The notes under the pieces: model-generated
What the model saw: the letters and a program-made list of their open reading frames with translations, nothing else
Told to the model about the DNA's origin: nothing
Database searches by the model: none
Made by a program: the position numbers and the translations under genes
Shown here: in pieces, positions 1,692 to 34,174 of the stretch
Numbering within the stretch: the stretch's first letter is position 1
Layout: every line of letters starts with the position of its first letter
From: a virus
Lineage: Duplodnaviria > Caudoviricetes
IMG/VR virus record: IMGVR_UViG_3300033076_000503
Span: 1-34,174 of that record
DNA length: 34,174 nucleotides
Strand: one strand, 5' to 3'

Positions 1692-1938
1692 CAACACCAG
1701 CCCCAATGACGCCGACAGTTGCTATAGCTGGGATAAGAACCCACCAGCCCCACCCCCAGAACAGGCCGGCTACGGATAGCCCACATAGAATGCATGCAGC
1801 AATCGCAGTGCCAACAGCGTCGCTATTCCCTGAAACGTATTCTGTGCGAACTTCCACGACCTTCTCGGGTTGAGCCGCTACAAGGCGCTCGTACTCTTCC
1901 ATGGGAAGTATCACTTGCTTTTTGTTCTCGTCCATCAT
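1684..1938 (-). CDS. Small membrane protein with two C-terminal hydrophobic segments
   Basis: GGAGG RBS; AVGTAIAACILCGLSVAGLFW and WWVLIPAIATVGVIGAGV hydrophobic stretches. Confidence 0.75.
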   Translation of the reverse strand: MMDENKKQVILPMEEYERLVAAQPEKVVEVRTEYVSGNSDAVGTAIAACILCGLSVAGLFWGWGWWVLIPAIATVGVIGAGVDA

Positions 1939-1962
1939 TCCTCCAAAGTCACGGTAGATCGG

Positions 1963-2367
1963 TTAAAATGGTACATCAGACACGGGCCAGACTTCATGGA
2001 TATATTCTTCTTTCGTGGGGGCCTCAGACGGATTCTTGTCAAACTTGGTCATGAACTCCACAGTCTCGCCCACAATCTTAACCTTAGACTGCTTGCGCCC
2101 ATCTTTATCCGTCCATCGATCTTGCTTGAGTCGCCCCATCACGCGAACACCTCGACCCTTCTCAAGCATCTCGAGACATCGCTCGGCTGTTTTGTTCCAT
2201 GTCTCGACATCGAAGAAACTAACCTCTTCTTTCTTCTCGCCGTCTTTCTTGTAGTACCGATTAGAGGCCACGGTGAACGTGCATAGGATGCCGCCGCCAA
2301 CCTCGCGTTTCTCGGGATTGGCGACGAGATTGCCTTCGATTAAGACATTATTGAGACTGTTCATCAT
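1963..2367 (-). CDS. ssb: Single-stranded DNA-binding protein
   Basis: OB-fold motifs NNVLIEGNL, SFFDVETW, GRLKQDRW; acidic C-terminal DVPF tail. Confidence 0.97.
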   Translation of the reverse strand: MMNSLNNVLIEGNLVANPEKREVGGGILCTFTVASNRYYKKDGEKKEEVSFFDVETWNKTAERCLEMLEKGRGVRVMGRLKQDRWTDKDGRKQSKVKIVGETVEFMTKFDKNPSEAPTKEEYIHEVWPVSDVPF

Positions 2368-2789
2368 TCCTCCGTTAATACGACGCCCTTCTCGGCTGCG
2401 TCTTGTTCTGCTACGTCGATCAAGATCGATTCCTGTTCTACGCTCGCCCTAGACTCGCTCTGGGCAATCGACATCTCTACAAGCACGCCCTCGGGTGTCT
2501 TATAGTGCACTACATCGAAAGGCCAGCCGCGAGCGATAGCCTTCTGTTTCAGCTCCATTTTCAGGCGCTCGAAATCGTCCTGCGTCTGCACACAAATCTG
2601 TGCCACAATCGCGTGAAACTTCGCTGACTGGCTTCCACGCCCTGTACTCCGTGGCCGAAACGGGGCCTGAAACGTCACTTGCAAGTAGGGCGCTTTCTGC
2701 TTGGATAGCATGTTGCGCACTTGCAACTTCTGGGCTTCGGTCAGCATGAGACGGTCACCGACAATCTCGACGGCGGGGAACTTAACCAT
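2364..2789 (-). CDS. NinB/Orf-like recombination accessory protein
   Basis: RPRST..SQSAKFHAIVAQI resembles the NinB 'RS..QN..(L/F)' helix; position in the recombination module; GGAG before ATG 2789. Confidence 0.55.
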   Translation of the reverse strand: MVKFPAVEIVGDRLMLTEAQKLQVRNMLSKQKAPYLQVTFQAPFRPRSTGRGSQSAKFHAIVAQICVQTQDDFERLKMELKQKAIARGWPFDVVHYKTPEGVLVEMSIAQSESRASVEQESILIDVAEQDAAEKGVVLTEE

Positions 2790-4898: not shown

Positions 4899-4957
4899 CC
4901 AAAACATGTAGCACTTTGGGTAGGGAGCAAAGTCCAGAATGTTTCCCAGGATGCCGC

Positions 4958-5469: not shown

Positions 5470-5578
5470 CCACCCACCCGGTCTAACCACCGTGGCACTA
5501 CATGCCTAGATTGATGATAGCCTATGTAGGCGGAAAGAGCCAAAGGAGATTGAAATAGCAACTGGAAGTGAGGGAAGA

Positions 5579-5857
5579 ATGAAGTTCGAATGGAAGCGCA
5601 GTAATGGACGCCGATGGGCTGACGAGTGTGACCTGGTGGCCGGTAAGATTAGGCTGGCCTCGATCATCAAGAACATTGGCGCCAAGGGTGGGCCTGAAAC
5701 TTTTCGTCTTGTGTTCTCTTTGCCGCAGATTTCAGGAAGCGATGTCTTAGAAAGATTCGATCCATCAAAGATTGACGAGATCAAGAAGCATGCCGAGCAT
5801 GTATGCAAAAAGTGGTTTGCTGCGGCCGGCTTTGTGCTGGAAGTGAGGAAGGAATGA
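5579..5857 (+). CDS. Hypothetical protein (92 aa) flanked by 21-bp direct repeats
   Basis: GAGG RBS; ATGA overlap with the YopX-like gene. Confidence 0.75.
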   Translation: MKFEWKRSNGRRWADECDLVAGKIRLASIIKNIGAKGGPETFRLVFSLPQISGSDVLERFDPSKIDEIKKHAEHVCKKWFAAAGFVLEVRKE

Positions 5858-6195: not shown

Positions 6196-6497
6196 GCTGC
6201 AACGAAACCGCTTATTACCTACGATCCGACGAAGACGCCGTTGACTATCTGCGTGACAAGCCGATGGGTAGGTGTACGTGGTGTGGAGCTCGCGTCCTAG
6301 ACCTCAGTGCACAATCCGGCATGTACCCCAGCGGCCACGAGGCTTCAAGACTGTATGGGAGTCGTTCGTGCCGATGGGACATGACAGACACGGAGCTCGG
6401 CAACCGCGCGCGCTACCAAGAGGAGCGCGAGGCGCAGGCCTTAGTCAATGAGCAAGTGAACCGAGAGGTATCCCGTGGCAAAGAACCGCCGTGCTGA
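6192..6497 (+). CDS. Hypothetical protein with CxxC motif
   Basis: ATGA coupling at 6192-6195; CTWCG motif. Confidence 0.65.
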   Translation: MSCNETAYYLRSDEDAVDYLRDKPMGRCTWCGARVLDLSAQSGMYPSGHEASRLYGSRSCRWDMTDTELGNRARYQEEREAQALVNEQVNREVSRGKEPPC

Positions 6498-6702
6498 CAA
6501 CACCAGAAACGAGCGTCAGCGTCGATGGTACTGGCGCAACCGCGAGTTAAAGAACCAGCTTAACCGTGATCGTTACCACGGGTTCAAGGCCGCTGGGCTA
6601 TGCCCCTGTTGTGGTCATCAGCCCGACGTCGACCGTATACTGTGCCGACCTTGCCAGGATAAGCGTAAGGGGATCGCCAGCAGGATGGAAAGTTCCCGTT
6701 GA
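6475..6702 (+). CDS. Basic Zn-finger protein
   Basis: GAGGT RBS; Arg-rich helix, then GLCPCCG...LCRPC. Confidence 0.7.
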   Translation: MAKNRRADNTRNERQRRWYWRNRELKNQLNRDRYHGFKAAGLCPCCGHQPDVDRILCRPCQDKRKGIASRMESSR

Positions 6703-6737: not shown

Positions 6738-6867
6738 GTGTTTCGCGAGCGGCAACTCGCGTGACACTTGCCTCGGTAGGGGGTAGGATTCAAGAGCCGT
6801 TTACGACACCAGGGGGTGCTTACCGCTAGCCCCCGTTCCTTGCCGGGGGTGTCGTAAACGGCTTTTT
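6738..6867 (+). ncRNA. Structured leader / C4- or CI-like antisense RNA element
   Basis: Perfect 16-bp stem (6795-6810/6848-6863) with a T run; two inner loops complementary to two upstream hairpin loops. Confidence 0.7.
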
Positions 6868-7557: not shown

Positions 7558-8782
7558 ACCCGAACACCGCGACGCTAACGAATGGGCATTCCTTGGCTGC
7601 GTGATTCTTGATAGCGACATCCTTGTTTCGTCGTACCTGACAGAAACGATGTTCACGACGCATCGCGGGGTATTTAGGACGCTTTCAGACATCGCGGCCA
7701 AAACTAAGATTGATCATACCGACGTTGCTAGACTTATGGGGTTGGGGTTGGATGGCGTAACTATTTCCAAGTTGACCGAGGCCGTACCGAGCGCTGCCAA
7801 CTGGGAATACTACCAGAAGACAATTTTCGAGGCGTGGGCAGAAGACACAGTAAAGGCTGCGTACAGGCTCGCGCTTTCCGAGGGATTCCCAGGATGTATC
7901 GACACCGTAGAACGGGCTGTGACCGCTGTAGCTCTTCGCCAAACTAATTCTAAGACAAAGCATGTACGCGAGATTATCCATCCCGCCTTAGAGCGAGTTA
8001 TGGAGCGAATTAGAACACGCGGCAAGATTCCTGGTGTATCATGGGGCTTTGAAACCATCGACCAATGCACGCTCGGCGCTCAACCTGGGCAATTCGTTGT
8101 TGTGGGTGCTAGGCCGTCTCAAGGTAAAAGCGCCATCATGGCACAGATGGCCAGGTCTATGGCTAAGGATGGCCAGACAGTCGGCGTTGTCACCATCGAA
8201 TCATCGGAAACCGAGCTTGTGATCCGCATGTTGGGCGCTGATGCTCGGATTGACGGGCGAGACTTGCAGACCGGCATGATCGGGCAGGCTCACCTAGCCG
8301 GGCTCAAGTTGTCCGCTGAGCGGCTGATATCTTCTGGCATCTTGATCCACGATCAGCCATCAATTCGCATCGCGCAGCTTCAGGCTGTTATCCGCAAGAT
8401 GGCTAGGGACGGCGCTAAGGTTGTCTTTCTCGACTACTTGCAGCTAGTGCGCGTTCCTGGAAAGGATAGGCGCATGGATGAGGTTGGCGAGGCTTCAACG
8501 TCACTGAAGGCTATAGCTCGAGAGCTTGGCGTGTGTGTTGTGGCTATGGCGCAACTAGGCCGAGACTCTGACGACAGGCGGCCAAACATGGGCGACCTTC
8601 AACACTCATCTCAAATCGAGCAAGACGCCGACCAGATTTGGCTTTTGTGGCACAAGCAGGACGGCGAGGGCAATTTCACCGAGAGCCGCGTCATCCTAGC
8701 TAAGGTTAGGGACGGCCATGTTCGAGATGTTCCTGTCAAGTTTGATAGGCCGACACTAACATTTTTCGAGGTTGAGCCGTGA
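7547..8782 (+). CDS. dnaB: Replicative DnaB-family helicase
   Basis: GARPSQGKS Walker A, VFLDYLQL, MAQLGR, RPNMGDLQHSSQIEQDAD, AKVRDG. Confidence 0.96.
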   Translation: MPAKPEHRDANEWAFLGCVILDSDILVSSYLTETMFTTHRGVFRTLSDIAAKTKIDHTDVARLMGLGLDGVTISKLTEAVPSAANWEYYQKTIFEAWAEDTVKAAYRLALSEGFPGCIDTVERAVTAVALRQTNSKTKHVREIIHPALERVMERIRTRGKIPGVSWGFETIDQCTLGAQPGQFVVVGARPSQGKSAIMAQMARSMAKDGQTVGVVTIESSETELVIRMLGADARIDGRDLQTGMIGQAHLAGLKLSAERLISSGILIHDQPSIRIAQLQAVIRKMARDGAKVVFLDYLQLVRVPGKDRRMDEVGEASTSLKAIARELGVCVVAMAQLGRDSDDRRPNMGDLQHSSQIEQDADQIWLLWHKQDGEGNFTESRVILAKVRDGHVRDVPVKFDRPTLTFFEVEP

Positions 8783-10753: not shown

Positions 10754-11082
10754 GCCGATTCGATGCTTTCTGGGAGTTCAAGAACTCCCTCAATGGCCTA
10801 ACTCGGGAGCAGGCTGAAATCGAGGCTGCTAAGTATGACCGCCATGAGTACCATGTTTTCGTGGAGGAGATAACCTTTGATACCGGCGAATACGGGTACA
10901 CCGACGACCTAGGCTATATTCATAACAGAGAGATGAGAACGGGAGTCTTTAAAGTTGTCACTCGAAAGCGCGACCATGAGAATGAGAGGAAGGCAACGGA
11001 AGCCGGTAGAGCTATCAGTGAAATGATGACAGCCTACTACTCAACGCACGATCATAGCGACTTATTCAGGAGGGAGTCATGA
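10750..11082 (+). CDS. Hypothetical protein (110 aa)
   Basis: GGAGG RBS; ATGA coupling at 10750. Confidence 0.7.
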   Translation: MSRFDAFWEFKNSLNGLTREQAEIEAAKYDRHEYHVFVEEITFDTGEYGYTDDLGYIHNREMRTGVFKVVTRKRDHENERKATEAGRAISEMMTAYYSTHDHSDLFRRES

Positions 11083-22929: not shown

Positions 22930-23814
22930 ATGGCGGGAACATTAATACCGACGCGCGACCAGCTTAAAAGATGGTGCTCAGATTCTCAGGGAACGGATGA
23001 GGACCTACTAAGGAAGATCGAACAGGTTTTCTTTGGGGTTGAACAGATACCAGGTCTTGAGGACGGTGTTGACAATAATACACTGGCCATTAGTACGTTA
23101 TCTGACCTTGTCAGGCCGATAACAATCGACCCCATTCAGCCGCTATCCGCGCAGATTTCGAGTAATACGACGTATACGCTCACTGGTGGCGAGGCTACCG
23201 AGGGCATGAAGACTGTTCTCATCCCATCGGCGTATCTCGTCGCGTCTGCCGGTGGCCCATTCACACTCACGATAACCACCGGGCTTGGAACTACTGAAAC
23301 TGTCACTATATCCGCTGCCGGATCGACCATTGTTAGCGGCGACCTTATTTTTAACATCCAAGTTGATGCTTCGGGCAATGTTAATGCCCAGTGGTTTGGG
23401 TACACGGTCCTCGACTCTCTCGGCGAGGGGATAATCTCAAACAATGGCAGAAGGTACCCATCACTTGTCGATGATTCGCGTGTGACAACGGGTACGACAG
23501 ATAGAACCGAGACTGTTAGAACCCTTGAAATAGGACAGACCGCGCTTATTAATTGGGCGTGTGGCGTTACTGGTGGCGTGGCCAGAACAATAACATTTGC
23601 ATTGCCGGATGTTCCTGCCACGGCTGATACTTACCAAGTATCGGGGTTAGCCCAGCAGGCCGCTACCAATACATTGACTACGGCTGCGGCGTTTCCGGCA
23701 TTCGTTACGTTCTCGTCATTTGGTGCATCTGCCGGGGGCGTAACATTGCCATTCGCTGGCATAGCCAGCGGTAACACTGCGTCTATTCATGGGTATGTAA
23801 AGAGGTTGAGTTAA
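22930..23814 (+). CDS. Tail-associated protein at the P22 gp26 (needle) position, with an extended beta-rich C-terminus
   Basis: Synteny; short N-terminal helical part followed by a Thr/Gly-rich region. Confidence 0.6.
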   Translation: MAGTLIPTRDQLKRWCSDSQGTDEDLLRKIEQVFFGVEQIPGLEDGVDNNTLAISTLSDLVRPITIDPIQPLSAQISSNTTYTLTGGEATEGMKTVLIPSAYLVASAGGPFTLTITTGLGTTETVTISAAGSTIVSGDLIFNIQVDASGNVNAQWFGYTVLDSLGEGIISNNGRRYPSLVDDSRVTTGTTDRTETVRTLEIGQTALINWACGVTGGVARTITFALPDVPATADTYQVSGLAQQAATNTLTTAAAFPAFVTFSSFGASAGGVTLPFAGIASGNTASIHGYVKRLS

Positions 23815-32147: not shown

Positions 32148-32537
32148 ATGTCCATCATTCGTAATTTCGTGACCAAGATTCCACTGGCGTGCGGGGTTGA
32201 CCCCATCATCGCCAAGGAGTTTGGCAAGCTCAACAAACGTCTTTTCGACCTGGAAAAGCGCAACCCCAACGGCCCACTCAACCGCAAGCGGTTCGTCAGT
32301 GTCGCCGACCGTCTCGCTGTTGGTATCGACCCGTGGAAACGGTTCGCCGACCCGCGAAAGCTCGCCTATGCCGTAGCTCTGCTTGAGTTCGCAGCCAAGA
32401 CCATCGACGCTAACGGCGGGGAATGGAAGGGCAAGAAAGAGGCCAAGTCTGCCCTCGCGCTTCGTCAGGCTGACAACCCCGAGGTCGCGGCGCTCATGAC
32501 CGTGGAGCAGGCGGCCACTATGGGTAACTGGGCATGA
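32148..32537 (+). CDS. Hypothetical protein (129 aa)
   Basis: AGGAGGT RBS; coupled to the next gene. Confidence 0.8.
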   Translation: MSIIRNFVTKIPLACGVDPIIAKEFGKLNKRLFDLEKRNPNGPLNRKRFVSVADRLAVGIDPWKRFADPRKLAYAVALLEFAAKTIDANGGEWKGKKEAKSALALRQADNPEVAALMTVEQAATMGNWA

Positions 32538-32737
32538 AAATCAAACTGTCAACCGGCACGGAAATCATCTTGACGGCGAAGGAGTTCGAGGAGTTGCGTC
32601 TAGCGGCCGCGCTAATGCAGCCTCAGCCGATACAGCCCGTCATCCATCCACACCCATGGCCATCATATGGTGCGACATGCGGATGCGGTGCATGTAGTGG
32701 CGATGGATACGGGTCTAATACGAGGACATTGACATGA
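32534..32737 (+). CDS. Hypothetical protein (67 aa)
   Basis: ATGA coupling on both sides. Confidence 0.6.
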   Translation: MKIKLSTGTEIILTAKEFEELRLAAALMQPQPIQPVIHPHPWPSYGATCGCGACSGDGYGSNTRTLT

Positions 32738-33309
32738 CTCTGCACCAGGTGATCGGCAGGATTTGCGCTGTTTTCTCGGTTGTTGTCTTCACGTACAACG
32801 TTTTCACACCCCACAACCCCGACCACTGGCTCAACCTTGCCGAGACCCTGGTACTTTCTATTCTTTTCATCACGGCGCTCTACTTCTCCCCTAAGGTGGC
32901 GAAGACGCTTCACGTACTCCTTTTCATGGCTATGTCGACCATAGCTGTCTTTACCGACACCGGCTTTGCCTTTAGTGCGTTTATGGCCGTGTCGACGTTT
33001 ATCCTGATCTACGCATATGGCGGTTTCAAGACGATGGCAGCTTGGAAACTGCCCATTGCCGCCGTGGTCTGCTATAGCGTATGCACTGTTGGTGTTTTGC
33101 ATTATAGCGAGTTGACGGTTGCAGCGTTTAGCCAGGCTGCTATCTGGGCGCTTTTCATTGCCCTTTTCATCACCTTCCTGTGGCTCGTCGAGCGTGAGAT
33201 TAGACGACGATTCTACGCGGACTTTGCATCCGAACTCATCCAGCAAAATCACGACCTACTTCAAGAGATACGACAACTTCACAAAGGGTGCAAAGATGAC
33301 AGAGATTGA
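32734..33309 (+). CDS. Multi-pass membrane protein (about 5-6 hydrophobic segments)
   Basis: GAGG RBS; long hydrophobic stretches; charged C-terminal helix. Confidence 0.8.
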   Translation: MTLHQVIGRICAVFSVVVFTYNVFTPHNPDHWLNLAETLVLSILFITALYFSPKVAKTLHVLLFMAMSTIAVFTDTGFAFSAFMAVSTFILIYAYGGFKTMAAWKLPIAAVVCYSVCTVGVLHYSELTVAAFSQAAIWALFIALFITFLWLVEREIRRRFYADFASELIQQNHDLLQEIRQLHKGCKDDRD

Positions 33310-33652
33310 GAGGCTTGCAGAATTGGAGAAGAAACAGGCGCTACACGAGGCGGCTGTGAAATCTTGGCAGGAGGCGCATGAGGAGCGAATGAGCTTCCAA
33401 ATGACCGCTTTTTCTCAGCGTCTTGAAACCGTCGAGGTGACACAGATGTCTATGCATCAAACAATGAGCGGGGTCAAGGAAGGGCTCGACAAGATCGTTG
33501 ATCGGCTAGACCGAGAAGCCGCGATCAAGGAAGCCATTAGCGGCGACCGAAGAAAACGCAAGATGGACCTCAAGGATTGGATGCAAATATTCCTCGGGAT
33601 CATTGGCGCGGTTGCCATTATCCTCCCCGTCGTCAAATCCATGATCAATTAA
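33296..33652 (+). CDS. Coiled-coil protein with one C-terminal TM segment (holin/XhlA-like architecture)
   Basis: MTEIERLAELEKKQ...; IFLGIIGAVAIILPVV. Confidence 0.7.
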   Translation: MTEIERLAELEKKQALHEAAVKSWQEAHEERMSFQMTAFSQRLETVEVTQMSMHQTMSGVKEGLDKIVDRLDREAAIKEAISGDRRKRKMDLKDWMQIFLGIIGAVAIILPVVKSMIN

Positions 33653-33654
33653 TC

Positions 33655-33682
33655 TTGACATCTCACTAAATCGTGTTACTCT
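33655..33682 (+). promoter_or_regulatory. Promoter TTGACA-N16-TACTCT with extended -10
   Basis: Perfect -35 and TG motif; predicted start ~33689-33690; no ORF directly downstream. Confidence 0.7.
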
Positions 33683-33689
33683 AACCAAC

Positions 33690-33807
33690 AGACGCGCGAG
33701 ACCTGACAGCATGGGTCGAGGATCATTCCTCCCAGTGAGACTAGACCCGGCTCCAATGCAACTATCGCCCGTGTTGGCGTGGCCATTGGTACAGGCTCGC
33801 GCGATCT
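33690..33807. ncRNA. Candidate ~118-nt three-way-junction RNA
   Basis: Closing stem CGCGCGAG-a-CCTG/CAGG-CTCGCGCG; arms GGGTC/GACCC and CCAATG/CATTGG; promoters on both sides. Confidence 0.65.
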
Positions 33808-33876
33808 ATTTCCCATACTAGCACTTTGCTCCATAAAACCATTCCGCAAAGTCCAGATGATTCCTGAAACTTTCTG

Positions 33877-33911
33877 TGGACAGACACAAGCGGTGGTGTT
33901 AGCATGTACTC
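33877..33911 (+). promoter_or_regulatory. Promoter TGGACA-N17-TAGCAT (extended -10), 6 nt before ATG 33912
   Basis: Same leaderless geometry as at 4863 and 4993. Confidence 0.65.
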
Positions 33912-34174
33912 ATGAGCAACGCATATGTCTGTCCCGTGTGTGGCGGTGTTGGAAAGGTGGCTGTCAATGGTTGGTGGCCATGCATTTCGTGTAACGGCAC
34001 TGGATGGCTCGCATATGGCACAACTTCAACAGCGAACGTCATGGGCAAGGAAAAAGACCCCGCAGCCGTAGCGCTTGGCCGGAAAGGTGGACAAGTAAAG
34101 TCTGAGCGAAAGCGTCAGGCGGCACTTGAACGCGAGGCCAAGAAGAAAACACGGCGCGAGGCTGAGAAGAAAGA
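33912..34174 (+). CDS. Protein with two CxxCxGxG motifs fused to a basic KDPAAVALGRKGG region; truncated by the window end, absent from the ORF track
   Basis: Hand translation MSNAYVCPVCGGVGKV...CISCNGTGW...KDPAAVALGRKGGQVKSERKRQAA...; no stop before the end. Confidence 0.8.
   Translation, partial: MSNAYVCPVCGGVGKVAVNGWWPCISCNGTGWLAYGTTSTANVMGKEKDPAAVALGRKGGQVKSERKRQAALEREAKKKTRREAEKK

Follow-up and report, generated by a model that had tools for sequence, protein, structure and literature searches.

The stretch of DNA analysed here (the window) comprises positions 1 to 34,174 of IMG/VR record IMGVR_UViG_3300033076_000503, a near-complete uncultured phage whose genes include those for P22-type portal and coat proteins, Terminase_3, DnaB and SSB. 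The host is likely to be a spirochaete because the named relatives of the SSB (57-60% identity) carry Spirochaetales, Spirochaetia or Spirochaetaceae labels. The last late gene has its stop codon at 33652, 2 nt ahead of the -35 hexamer of a predicted promoter, which is followed by a folded element of 118 nt, a bipartite DNA motif and a further promoter-like site (Table 1). Upstream of the late gene is a 191-aa multi-pass membrane protein (32734-33309) with 31 relatives and no Pfam or PHROG family, which is kept just ahead of lysis-like genes at all related loci; positions 32533-32733 are missing from other contigs. Elsewhere in the window, a long branched, attenuator-like hairpin followed by a T run (6793-6866) has the promoter at 6699 on one side and the replication-initiator gene (about 6886) on the other, and a complete relative (G001) has a similar structure ahead of its corresponding region.

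Table 1. Features of the element, its surroundings, its candidate targets and its homologues
Feature	Position	Strand	Remarks
SD/start of 83-aa membrane-protein gene	1934-1944	-	Second 11-nt complement of arm 1
ssb SD/start region	2363-2373	-	11-nt complement of arm 1; overlaps the Glu-Glu-stop end of a NinB-like gene
Last late gene	33296-33652	+	118 aa, one C-terminal hydrophobic stretch; no Pfam family
Predicted promoter	33655-33682	+	-35 TTGACA 33655-33660, 16-nt spacer, extended -10 TG-T-TACTCT 33674-33682
16-codon ORF of the sequence-only reading	33676-33726	-	Rejected as gene
Predicted Y-shaped non-coding RNA, 118 nt	33690-33807	+	Fold z -4.28; diverged homologues
Closing stem P1, 5' strand	33690-33705	+	Pairs with 33792-33807
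Arm 1	33708-33752	+	Apical loop CCUCCC 33728-33733, an anti-Shine-Dalgarno motif
Arm 2	33753-33789	+	Conserved motif CGCCCGUGU (33766-33774) at tip
Bipartite motif TAGCA(C/T)TTT-N20-AAAGTCCAG	33819-33856	+	Upstream of promoter-like site 33877-33905
Copies of bipartite motif	Window +33819-33856, +4909-4937, -31975 to -31937; G001 +11765, -34176, partial +36995		
Homologues of the RNA	L062 6370-6483; L063 6210-6322; L064 7757-7869		Matches of model R1

The promoter has the sequence given for it in an earlier, sequence-only reading of this DNA (TTGACA-N16-TACTCT), with a perfect -35; the TG at 33674-33675, absent from that reading, makes the -10 (TACTCT, 33677-33682) an extended one, and the predicted start is 33688-33690. 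The site was unlisted by a consensus scan because its -10 has three of six matches. Other sites of the phage resemble it: the window has 7 instances of TTGAC-N16-18-TANNNT, whereas 30 shuffles have 2.7 on average and 6 at most. The + strand of the element is very probably transcribed.

The three-way junction proposed for 33690-33807 holds up, with a predicted energy of -56.1 kcal/mol and a z score equalled by none of 200 shuffles. A 128-nt version of the element reaches z -5.56, and the minus strand folds more weakly (z -2.6 and -3.4). The second loop is CGUGUU, and the longest C run in the element is 3. Arm 1 had been said to present the 11-mer ATCATTCCTCC; it does so in part, the CCTCCC bases being unpaired (p 0.98-1.0) whereas TCATT, five of the 11 bases, is mostly paired (p unpaired 0.02-0.27). 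The segment AUCAUU (33722-33727) is lineage-specific and also mostly paired.

Two close strains, X3 and X4, are each represented by one contig from sequencing runs at a depth under 4; X5 and X6 yielded no coverage of the element. Together they differ from the window at three element positions, and no pair is broken: one change falls in a bulge, and the other two, both in arm 1, are A33745G (U-A to U-G) and G33749A (U-G to U-A), which preserve pairing on the + strand only. Changes are fewer inside the element than in the downstream flank (2/118 positions versus 7/108 in X4 and 3/93 versus 10/108 in X3; Fisher p 0.09 for each strain). The promoter of X4 carries three substitutions, all among the 16 spacer bases, with the hexamers and the TG intact. 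Beyond the element, both strains lack the 129 nt at 33916-34044, which in the window form a Cys-rich insert, so that ATG 33912 is fused to a small basic KGG-motif protein.

The sequence-only reading recognised no known family here, and Rfam searches agree, with no match at gathering score in the window and none at E <= 10 on 33550-33950; the copy at locus L063 (see below) gave two sub-threshold matches. Neither the window copy nor the L063 copy has a blastn match among GenBank phages, and a 29-nt plasmid match was set aside as chance. A 22-mer was found in none of the metagenome contigs and none of the genome contigs. Pattern scans of viral contigs returned 7, 30, 9 and 7 loci, all unrelated as judged by model R1 or by reading, a motif pattern scan of genomes returned one unrelated locus, and locus searches by the 118-aa and 129-aa neighbour proteins gave nothing. 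The literature searched holds no paper on this RNA. The loop motifs are absent from seven of the nine supplementary files of PMC10690425; the other two, which have no searchable text, could contain the family.

Because DNA pattern scans gave chance matches only, related loci were gathered through the upstream 191-aa membrane protein. Six of the eight metagenome loci were scanned with model R1, built from the window copy alone; L065 and L069, which look the same as G001 and G003 by length and matches, were left out. Full-length matches occur in three of the six (L062, L063 and L064; 21.5 bits, E ~0.002). There is no match in L067, and the contigs of L066 and L068 end ahead of the slot. A plain pairwise alignment gives z 7.2, a value that no shuffle out of 2000 equals, and with the reverse complement the score is no better than random. 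L063 and L064 are the same over the element and L062 is identical to L063 at 109 of 113 positions; thus, the three loci, with two sequences, amount to one independent lineage.

Within that lineage the diverged copies keep the fold with compensatory changes. In the three-sequence alignment, which was fitted to the model, 13 of 44 pairs are changed on both sides (0/500 shuffles), including 4 of the 15 pairs of the closing stem and 4 of 6 at the base of arm 2; RNAalifold counts 12 of 38. Coming from three sequences, these compensatory counts are suggestive only. Conservation extends to the closing stem, to the base of arm 1, to CCUCCC with GUGA after it, and to CGCCCGUGU, which is identical in all three aligned sequences; the L063 loop reads UCUCCUCCC. 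AUCAUU, the minus-strand ATG and any minus-strand -10 are not conserved.

All three homologues share the strand and the post-lysis slot of the window copy, each immediately following a tRNA-like gene. The L062 copy starts at the base after a tRNA match (6301-6369) and has five tRNA genes upstream. A TTGACA-17-TATCGT promoter, placed where the last late gene stops, opens its cassette, and back-to-back terminators follow, so that the RNA lies between a + promoter and a + terminator. L063 and L064 retain only the adjoining tRNA-like gene. The strand of the homologues, their tRNA operon context and the promoter and terminators of L062 indicate that the + strand is the likely product. Folding energy in the homologues favours the minus strand (z -5.9 and -5.1 versus -3.7 and -4.5), and some of their C-A oppositions would be wobbles if read on that strand.

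The same loci hold other structured sequences. The L062 tRNA cassette has two further folded non-tRNA units (5527-5587 and 6493-6600), the latter ending in a T-arm-like hairpin, with several degenerate tRNAs between the two. On the minus strand of L064 there are sub-threshold matches to twister-P1 (10100-10178; 40.6 bits, E 6e-6) and to the type III hammerhead (10822-10878; 33.1 bits, E 0.001), each of which ends at the SD of an early gene.

Model R2 finds no copy in the three complete relatives G001, G002 and G003 (the scan stopping 107 bases before the end of G003), in G004 to G006 (a loose first look) or in two Manatee Spring phages; its best stray scores, 18.5 and 20.2 bits, are partial stem matches. 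In G003 the post-lysis slot is occupied by a 126-nt tRNA-like RNA (L014:11668-11793) behind TTGACG-17-TAGAGT. This RNA has an acceptor stem, D-like and T arms and two long internal arms, is preceded by two folded units, and is missed by ARAGORN and Rfam.

These observations point to a real, conserved and so far undescribed small family of phage RNAs. A structured + strand RNA with an exposed anti-SD loop is supported by conservation, by covariation and by the position of the relatives in tRNA operons. The leading interpretation, which has about an even chance of being right, is a generic anti-Shine-Dalgarno sRNA that dampens messages with strong SDs. A stable Y-shaped RNA would be made from its own predicted promoter and, with its 5' and 3' ends locked in a 15-bp stem, would be protected from exonucleases; in the relatives it would be released from a tRNA precursor. 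The CCUCCC loop would pair in trans with G-rich SDs (GGGAGG or GGAGGA) and block 30S loading, not just on ssb but on a set of phage early messages and perhaps also on messages of the host. There are precedents in bacteria: in the accessible text of PMC6486639, C-rich loops of 6C RNA pair with ribosome-binding regions without chaperones, and in that of PMC10746234 the anti-SD seed of NfeR1 pairs at translation starts and represses. Counting against the anti-SD model are duplex energies that show no clear seed-target co-evolution, conservation seen in one independent lineage through an alignment that was fitted to the model, the modest predicted net energies, the stronger minus-strand fold of the homologues, the three complete relatives that manage without the RNA, and CGCCCGUGU, which it does not explain. 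This motif may provide another seed or bind a protein; a scan for its complement listed no site that could be tied to a start codon.

The distribution of matching SDs does not help to decide. Watson-Crick matches of at least 6 nt to the loop are present in 5 of the 11 genes called in the leftward early operon, compared with 1 of 25 late genes; for loop-matching SDs the early and late counts are 7/29 and 1/25 (p 0.056, with heuristic gene calls). The corresponding counts are 11/50 and 1/28 in G001 (p 0.047) and 1/13 and 1/9 in L064, where the bias is absent. The bias was rejected as evidence because G001 shows it equally without having the RNA.

The main rival, because the second motif has no target that could be found, is a stable RNA of the tRNA operon with a structural or decoy role; it would bind a protein or complex through its junction and conserved loops, and its anti-SD appearance would be secondary. 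This reading would fit with the position of the RNA among tRNAs and other unexplained folded RNAs, with the different, partly tRNA-like RNAs that take the slot in G003, and with the nine nucleotides of CGCCCGUGU being as conserved as the anti-SD loop. Length and Y shape also recall 5S rRNA, which is about 120 nt long and Y-shaped with paired 5' and 3' ends. However, the 5S model (RF00001), positive in 14 of 14 control genomes, has no match at E <= 10, nor do those of C4, 6C and ar14; ARAGORN is negative on the element, which has no D or T arm; and the conserved exposed loop is exactly anti-SD, as in tested sRNAs. A decoy is conceivable but rather unlikely.

Within the anti-SD model, a narrower case is a dedicated silencer of ssb and the membrane-protein gene that acts through an 11-nt duplex, with a seed retuned in this lineage. 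The 11-mer occurs exactly three times in the window (1934, 2363 and 33722), as had been stated, with 0.01 expected. It had been taken as the complement of the SD plus start codon of both genes. The match stands, but the start probably does not: both genes read GGAGG-A-ATG-ATG, and because SSB relatives start MNSLN the likely ssb start is the second ATG, at 2364; by analogy, the membrane-protein gene would start at 1935. With the CCUCC loop fixed, an 11-nt match to any of the phage's own SD contexts would arise from only 17 of the 4096 hexamers next to it (0.4%, under a uniform model applied post hoc), and ssb ranks first of 219 SD-bearing starts by raw duplex energy. Likewise, the best site of the L064 RNA in its own phage belongs to an early gene read leftward, with an exact match of 9 nt that reaches 11 when wobbles are counted (-13.9). 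Among the sites listed, and with L064 partly covered, exact matches are longer within a phage than across phages (11 versus 8 and 9 versus 7), but by energy the L064 RNA favours a window gene (-15.4) over the best site in its own phage, with 12.5 of 51.9 kb covered.

The specificity claimed for ssb and the membrane-protein gene is nevertheless weak, since AUCAUU, which holds the anti-AUG bases, is not found in the homologues. Opening the 11 nt costs 7.2 kcal/mol, which leaves a net energy of -6.4 at ssb, compared with -7.0 for the loop alone, and of -3.8 at the membrane-protein gene, compared with -5.1. Counting the cost of opening, the longer duplex gains nothing over the loop. With opening costs included, ssb falls to seventh of 90 ribosome sites, behind GGGAGG sites, and the membrane-protein gene lies outside the top 8 of the 90; the best predicted net energy is a modest -8.5 kcal/mol. 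Match length alone is not decisive because the element also shares an unrelated 11-mer (with position 23574) and a 14-mer with coding regions. The latter is an exact match, in the same sense, of 33789-33802 in the 3' strand of the closing stem to 7861-7874 on the coding strand of dnaB, and was treated as chance.

The ssb site also doubles as the last codons of the upstream gene. The 11-mer recurs at this gene end in G001, a phage without the RNA, where the match is 12 nt long. In G001 this junction is followed directly by a homologue of the window's gene at 1706 (homology by eye). The ssb and membrane-protein genes look inserted at the junction of the NinB-like gene, and the sites at 1934 and 2363 are probably one duplicated junction module. 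The two sites flank ssb, which is absent at the G001 junction, and are therefore probably not independent. A dedicated silencer is on balance an unlikely form of the anti-SD model.

Less probable still, though not negligible, is the possibility that the structure serves the late or tRNA transcript only as a 3'-end cap, a processing signal or a terminator-like fold. The GC-rich closing stem is followed by UUUUCUUU in the homologues, and L063 and L064 have no evident promoter between the last late gene and the RNA. In contrast, the window has a dedicated promoter with kept hexamers, in L062 a separate terminator follows after another 115 nt, and the loop sequences are conserved while the stems change.

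The sequence-only reading also proposed a promoter on the minus strand. Its -10, TGCTAGTAT, and the 16-codon minus-strand ORF are both present in the sequence. No -35 accompanies this -10, and it overlaps a DNA motif that is repeated: read backwards, it corresponds to the left half of TAGCA(C/T)TTT-N11/20/21-AAAGTCC, which has five aligned copies in two phages, with TAGCA, TTT and AAAGTCC invariant. Each copy is an imperfect inverted repeat upstream of a promoter-like site or gene, and spacers that differ by about one helical turn suggest a protein-binding site. The copy at 33819 is more likely a putative site of this kind for the next promoter. It is the only copy that, read on the other strand, has the -7 T needed by a -10, and it is doubtful that TGCTAGTAT also fires backwards as a promoter. 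In the homologues, the minus strand lacks TANNNT in the 60 nt downstream and its SD is not followed by an ATG, and in L062 a minus-strand terminator lies between the early genes and the RNA. The antisense partner is accordingly not supported.

The peptide fares no better. Its ORF has only the first ATG of the ATG-ATG pair, 1 nt after the SD, a spacing too close for normal initiation, and this ATG is replaced in L063 and L062. A type I toxin-antitoxin-like sense/antisense pair with the 16-aa peptide is therefore highly improbable: TGCTAGTAT resembles the phage's own extended -10 (compare 6699), an X3 change within it spares the key positions and the minus strand folds too, but the minus-strand -10 and the peptide ATG are absent from the homologues, the former is half of a repeated motif pointing the other way, the peptide has no long hydrophobic run, and the L062 copy is shielded by the minus-strand terminator.

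Returning to the anti-SD sRNA, a more elaborate version, tentative and less likely than its generic form, would be a portable Y-shaped RNA of phage tRNA operons with a seed retuned in each lineage. In the window such an RNA would have left the tRNA array, acquired its own promoter and gained bases with which its seed also covers the start codon of the gene that follows the NinB-like one. Its role would then be that of a programmable translation brake, either on the phage's own recombination and replication operon or, given the 12-nt match, on the same junction of a competing relative.

To our knowledge, few trans-acting phage sRNAs have been characterised, and folded RNAs among phage tRNA genes are mostly without an assigned function. 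The family described here is compact, covarying, Rfam-negative and so far tiny, and its seed is testable. Anti-SD loops as such are an already known device; if this one does block ribosome-binding sites, phage tRNA operons would deliver translation repressors besides tRNAs. If it does not, the conserved loops would point to an unknown protein partner.

Among known branched RNAs, the hammerhead ribozyme has CUGANGA and GAAA as its core at a three-way junction; the junction reads CUGACAG in the window, that of the homologues has no CUGA and there is no Rfam match, and a hammerhead was rejected. In phi29-type prohead RNA the two arm loops are complementary to each other. Here CCUCCC and CGUGUU are not, and the phage has a P22-type portal and Terminase_3, so this candidate was rejected as well. 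C4 antisense RNA of phages P1 and P7 is branched, uses its loops as seeds and is released by tRNA-type processing. The RNA resembles C4 (RF01695) in being phage-encoded and branched; it differs in that it does not adjoin an antirepressor operon, the C4 model has no match, and a complement scan found no target with complements of both loops.

Other likenesses are with bacterial sRNAs. The L063 loop equals the consensus of the Burkholderia anti-hemB sRNA (RF02837) over 12 nt, but the score, 12.2 bits, falls far short of the cut-off of 49.5, the alignment is limited to the first hairpin, and the window copy has no match. With 6C RNA of high-GC Gram-positive bacteria (RF01066, 0 matches) it shares C-rich loops on stems; according to the accessible text of PMC6486639, 6C is proposed to form chaperone-independent G-C pairs with several mRNAs, including that of a replication gene. 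Unlike 6C, the phage-borne RNA has no six-C run, has unlike loops and ends in a 15-bp terminal stem. The cuckoo or alpha-r14 RNAs (NfeR1, RSs0680; RF02344), as far as their accessible descriptions go, are similar in length and likewise carry a CCUCC-type loop on a hairpin with variable stems; the RF02344 covariance model gives 0 matches at E <= 10. In the accessible text of PMC4615179 they consist of two to four adjacent hairpins with no multiloop, each with CCUCCUCCC, and come from Rhizobiales and Rhodobacterales, whereas the three-way junction of the RNA described here is closed, one of its loops has CCUCCC, its second motif differs, and the phage that carries it has an SSB whose nearest relatives bear spirochaete labels. 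With one independent lineage in hand, the RNA shows the trait of the anti-SD sRNA class, an unpaired C-rich motif that is conserved while the stems vary.
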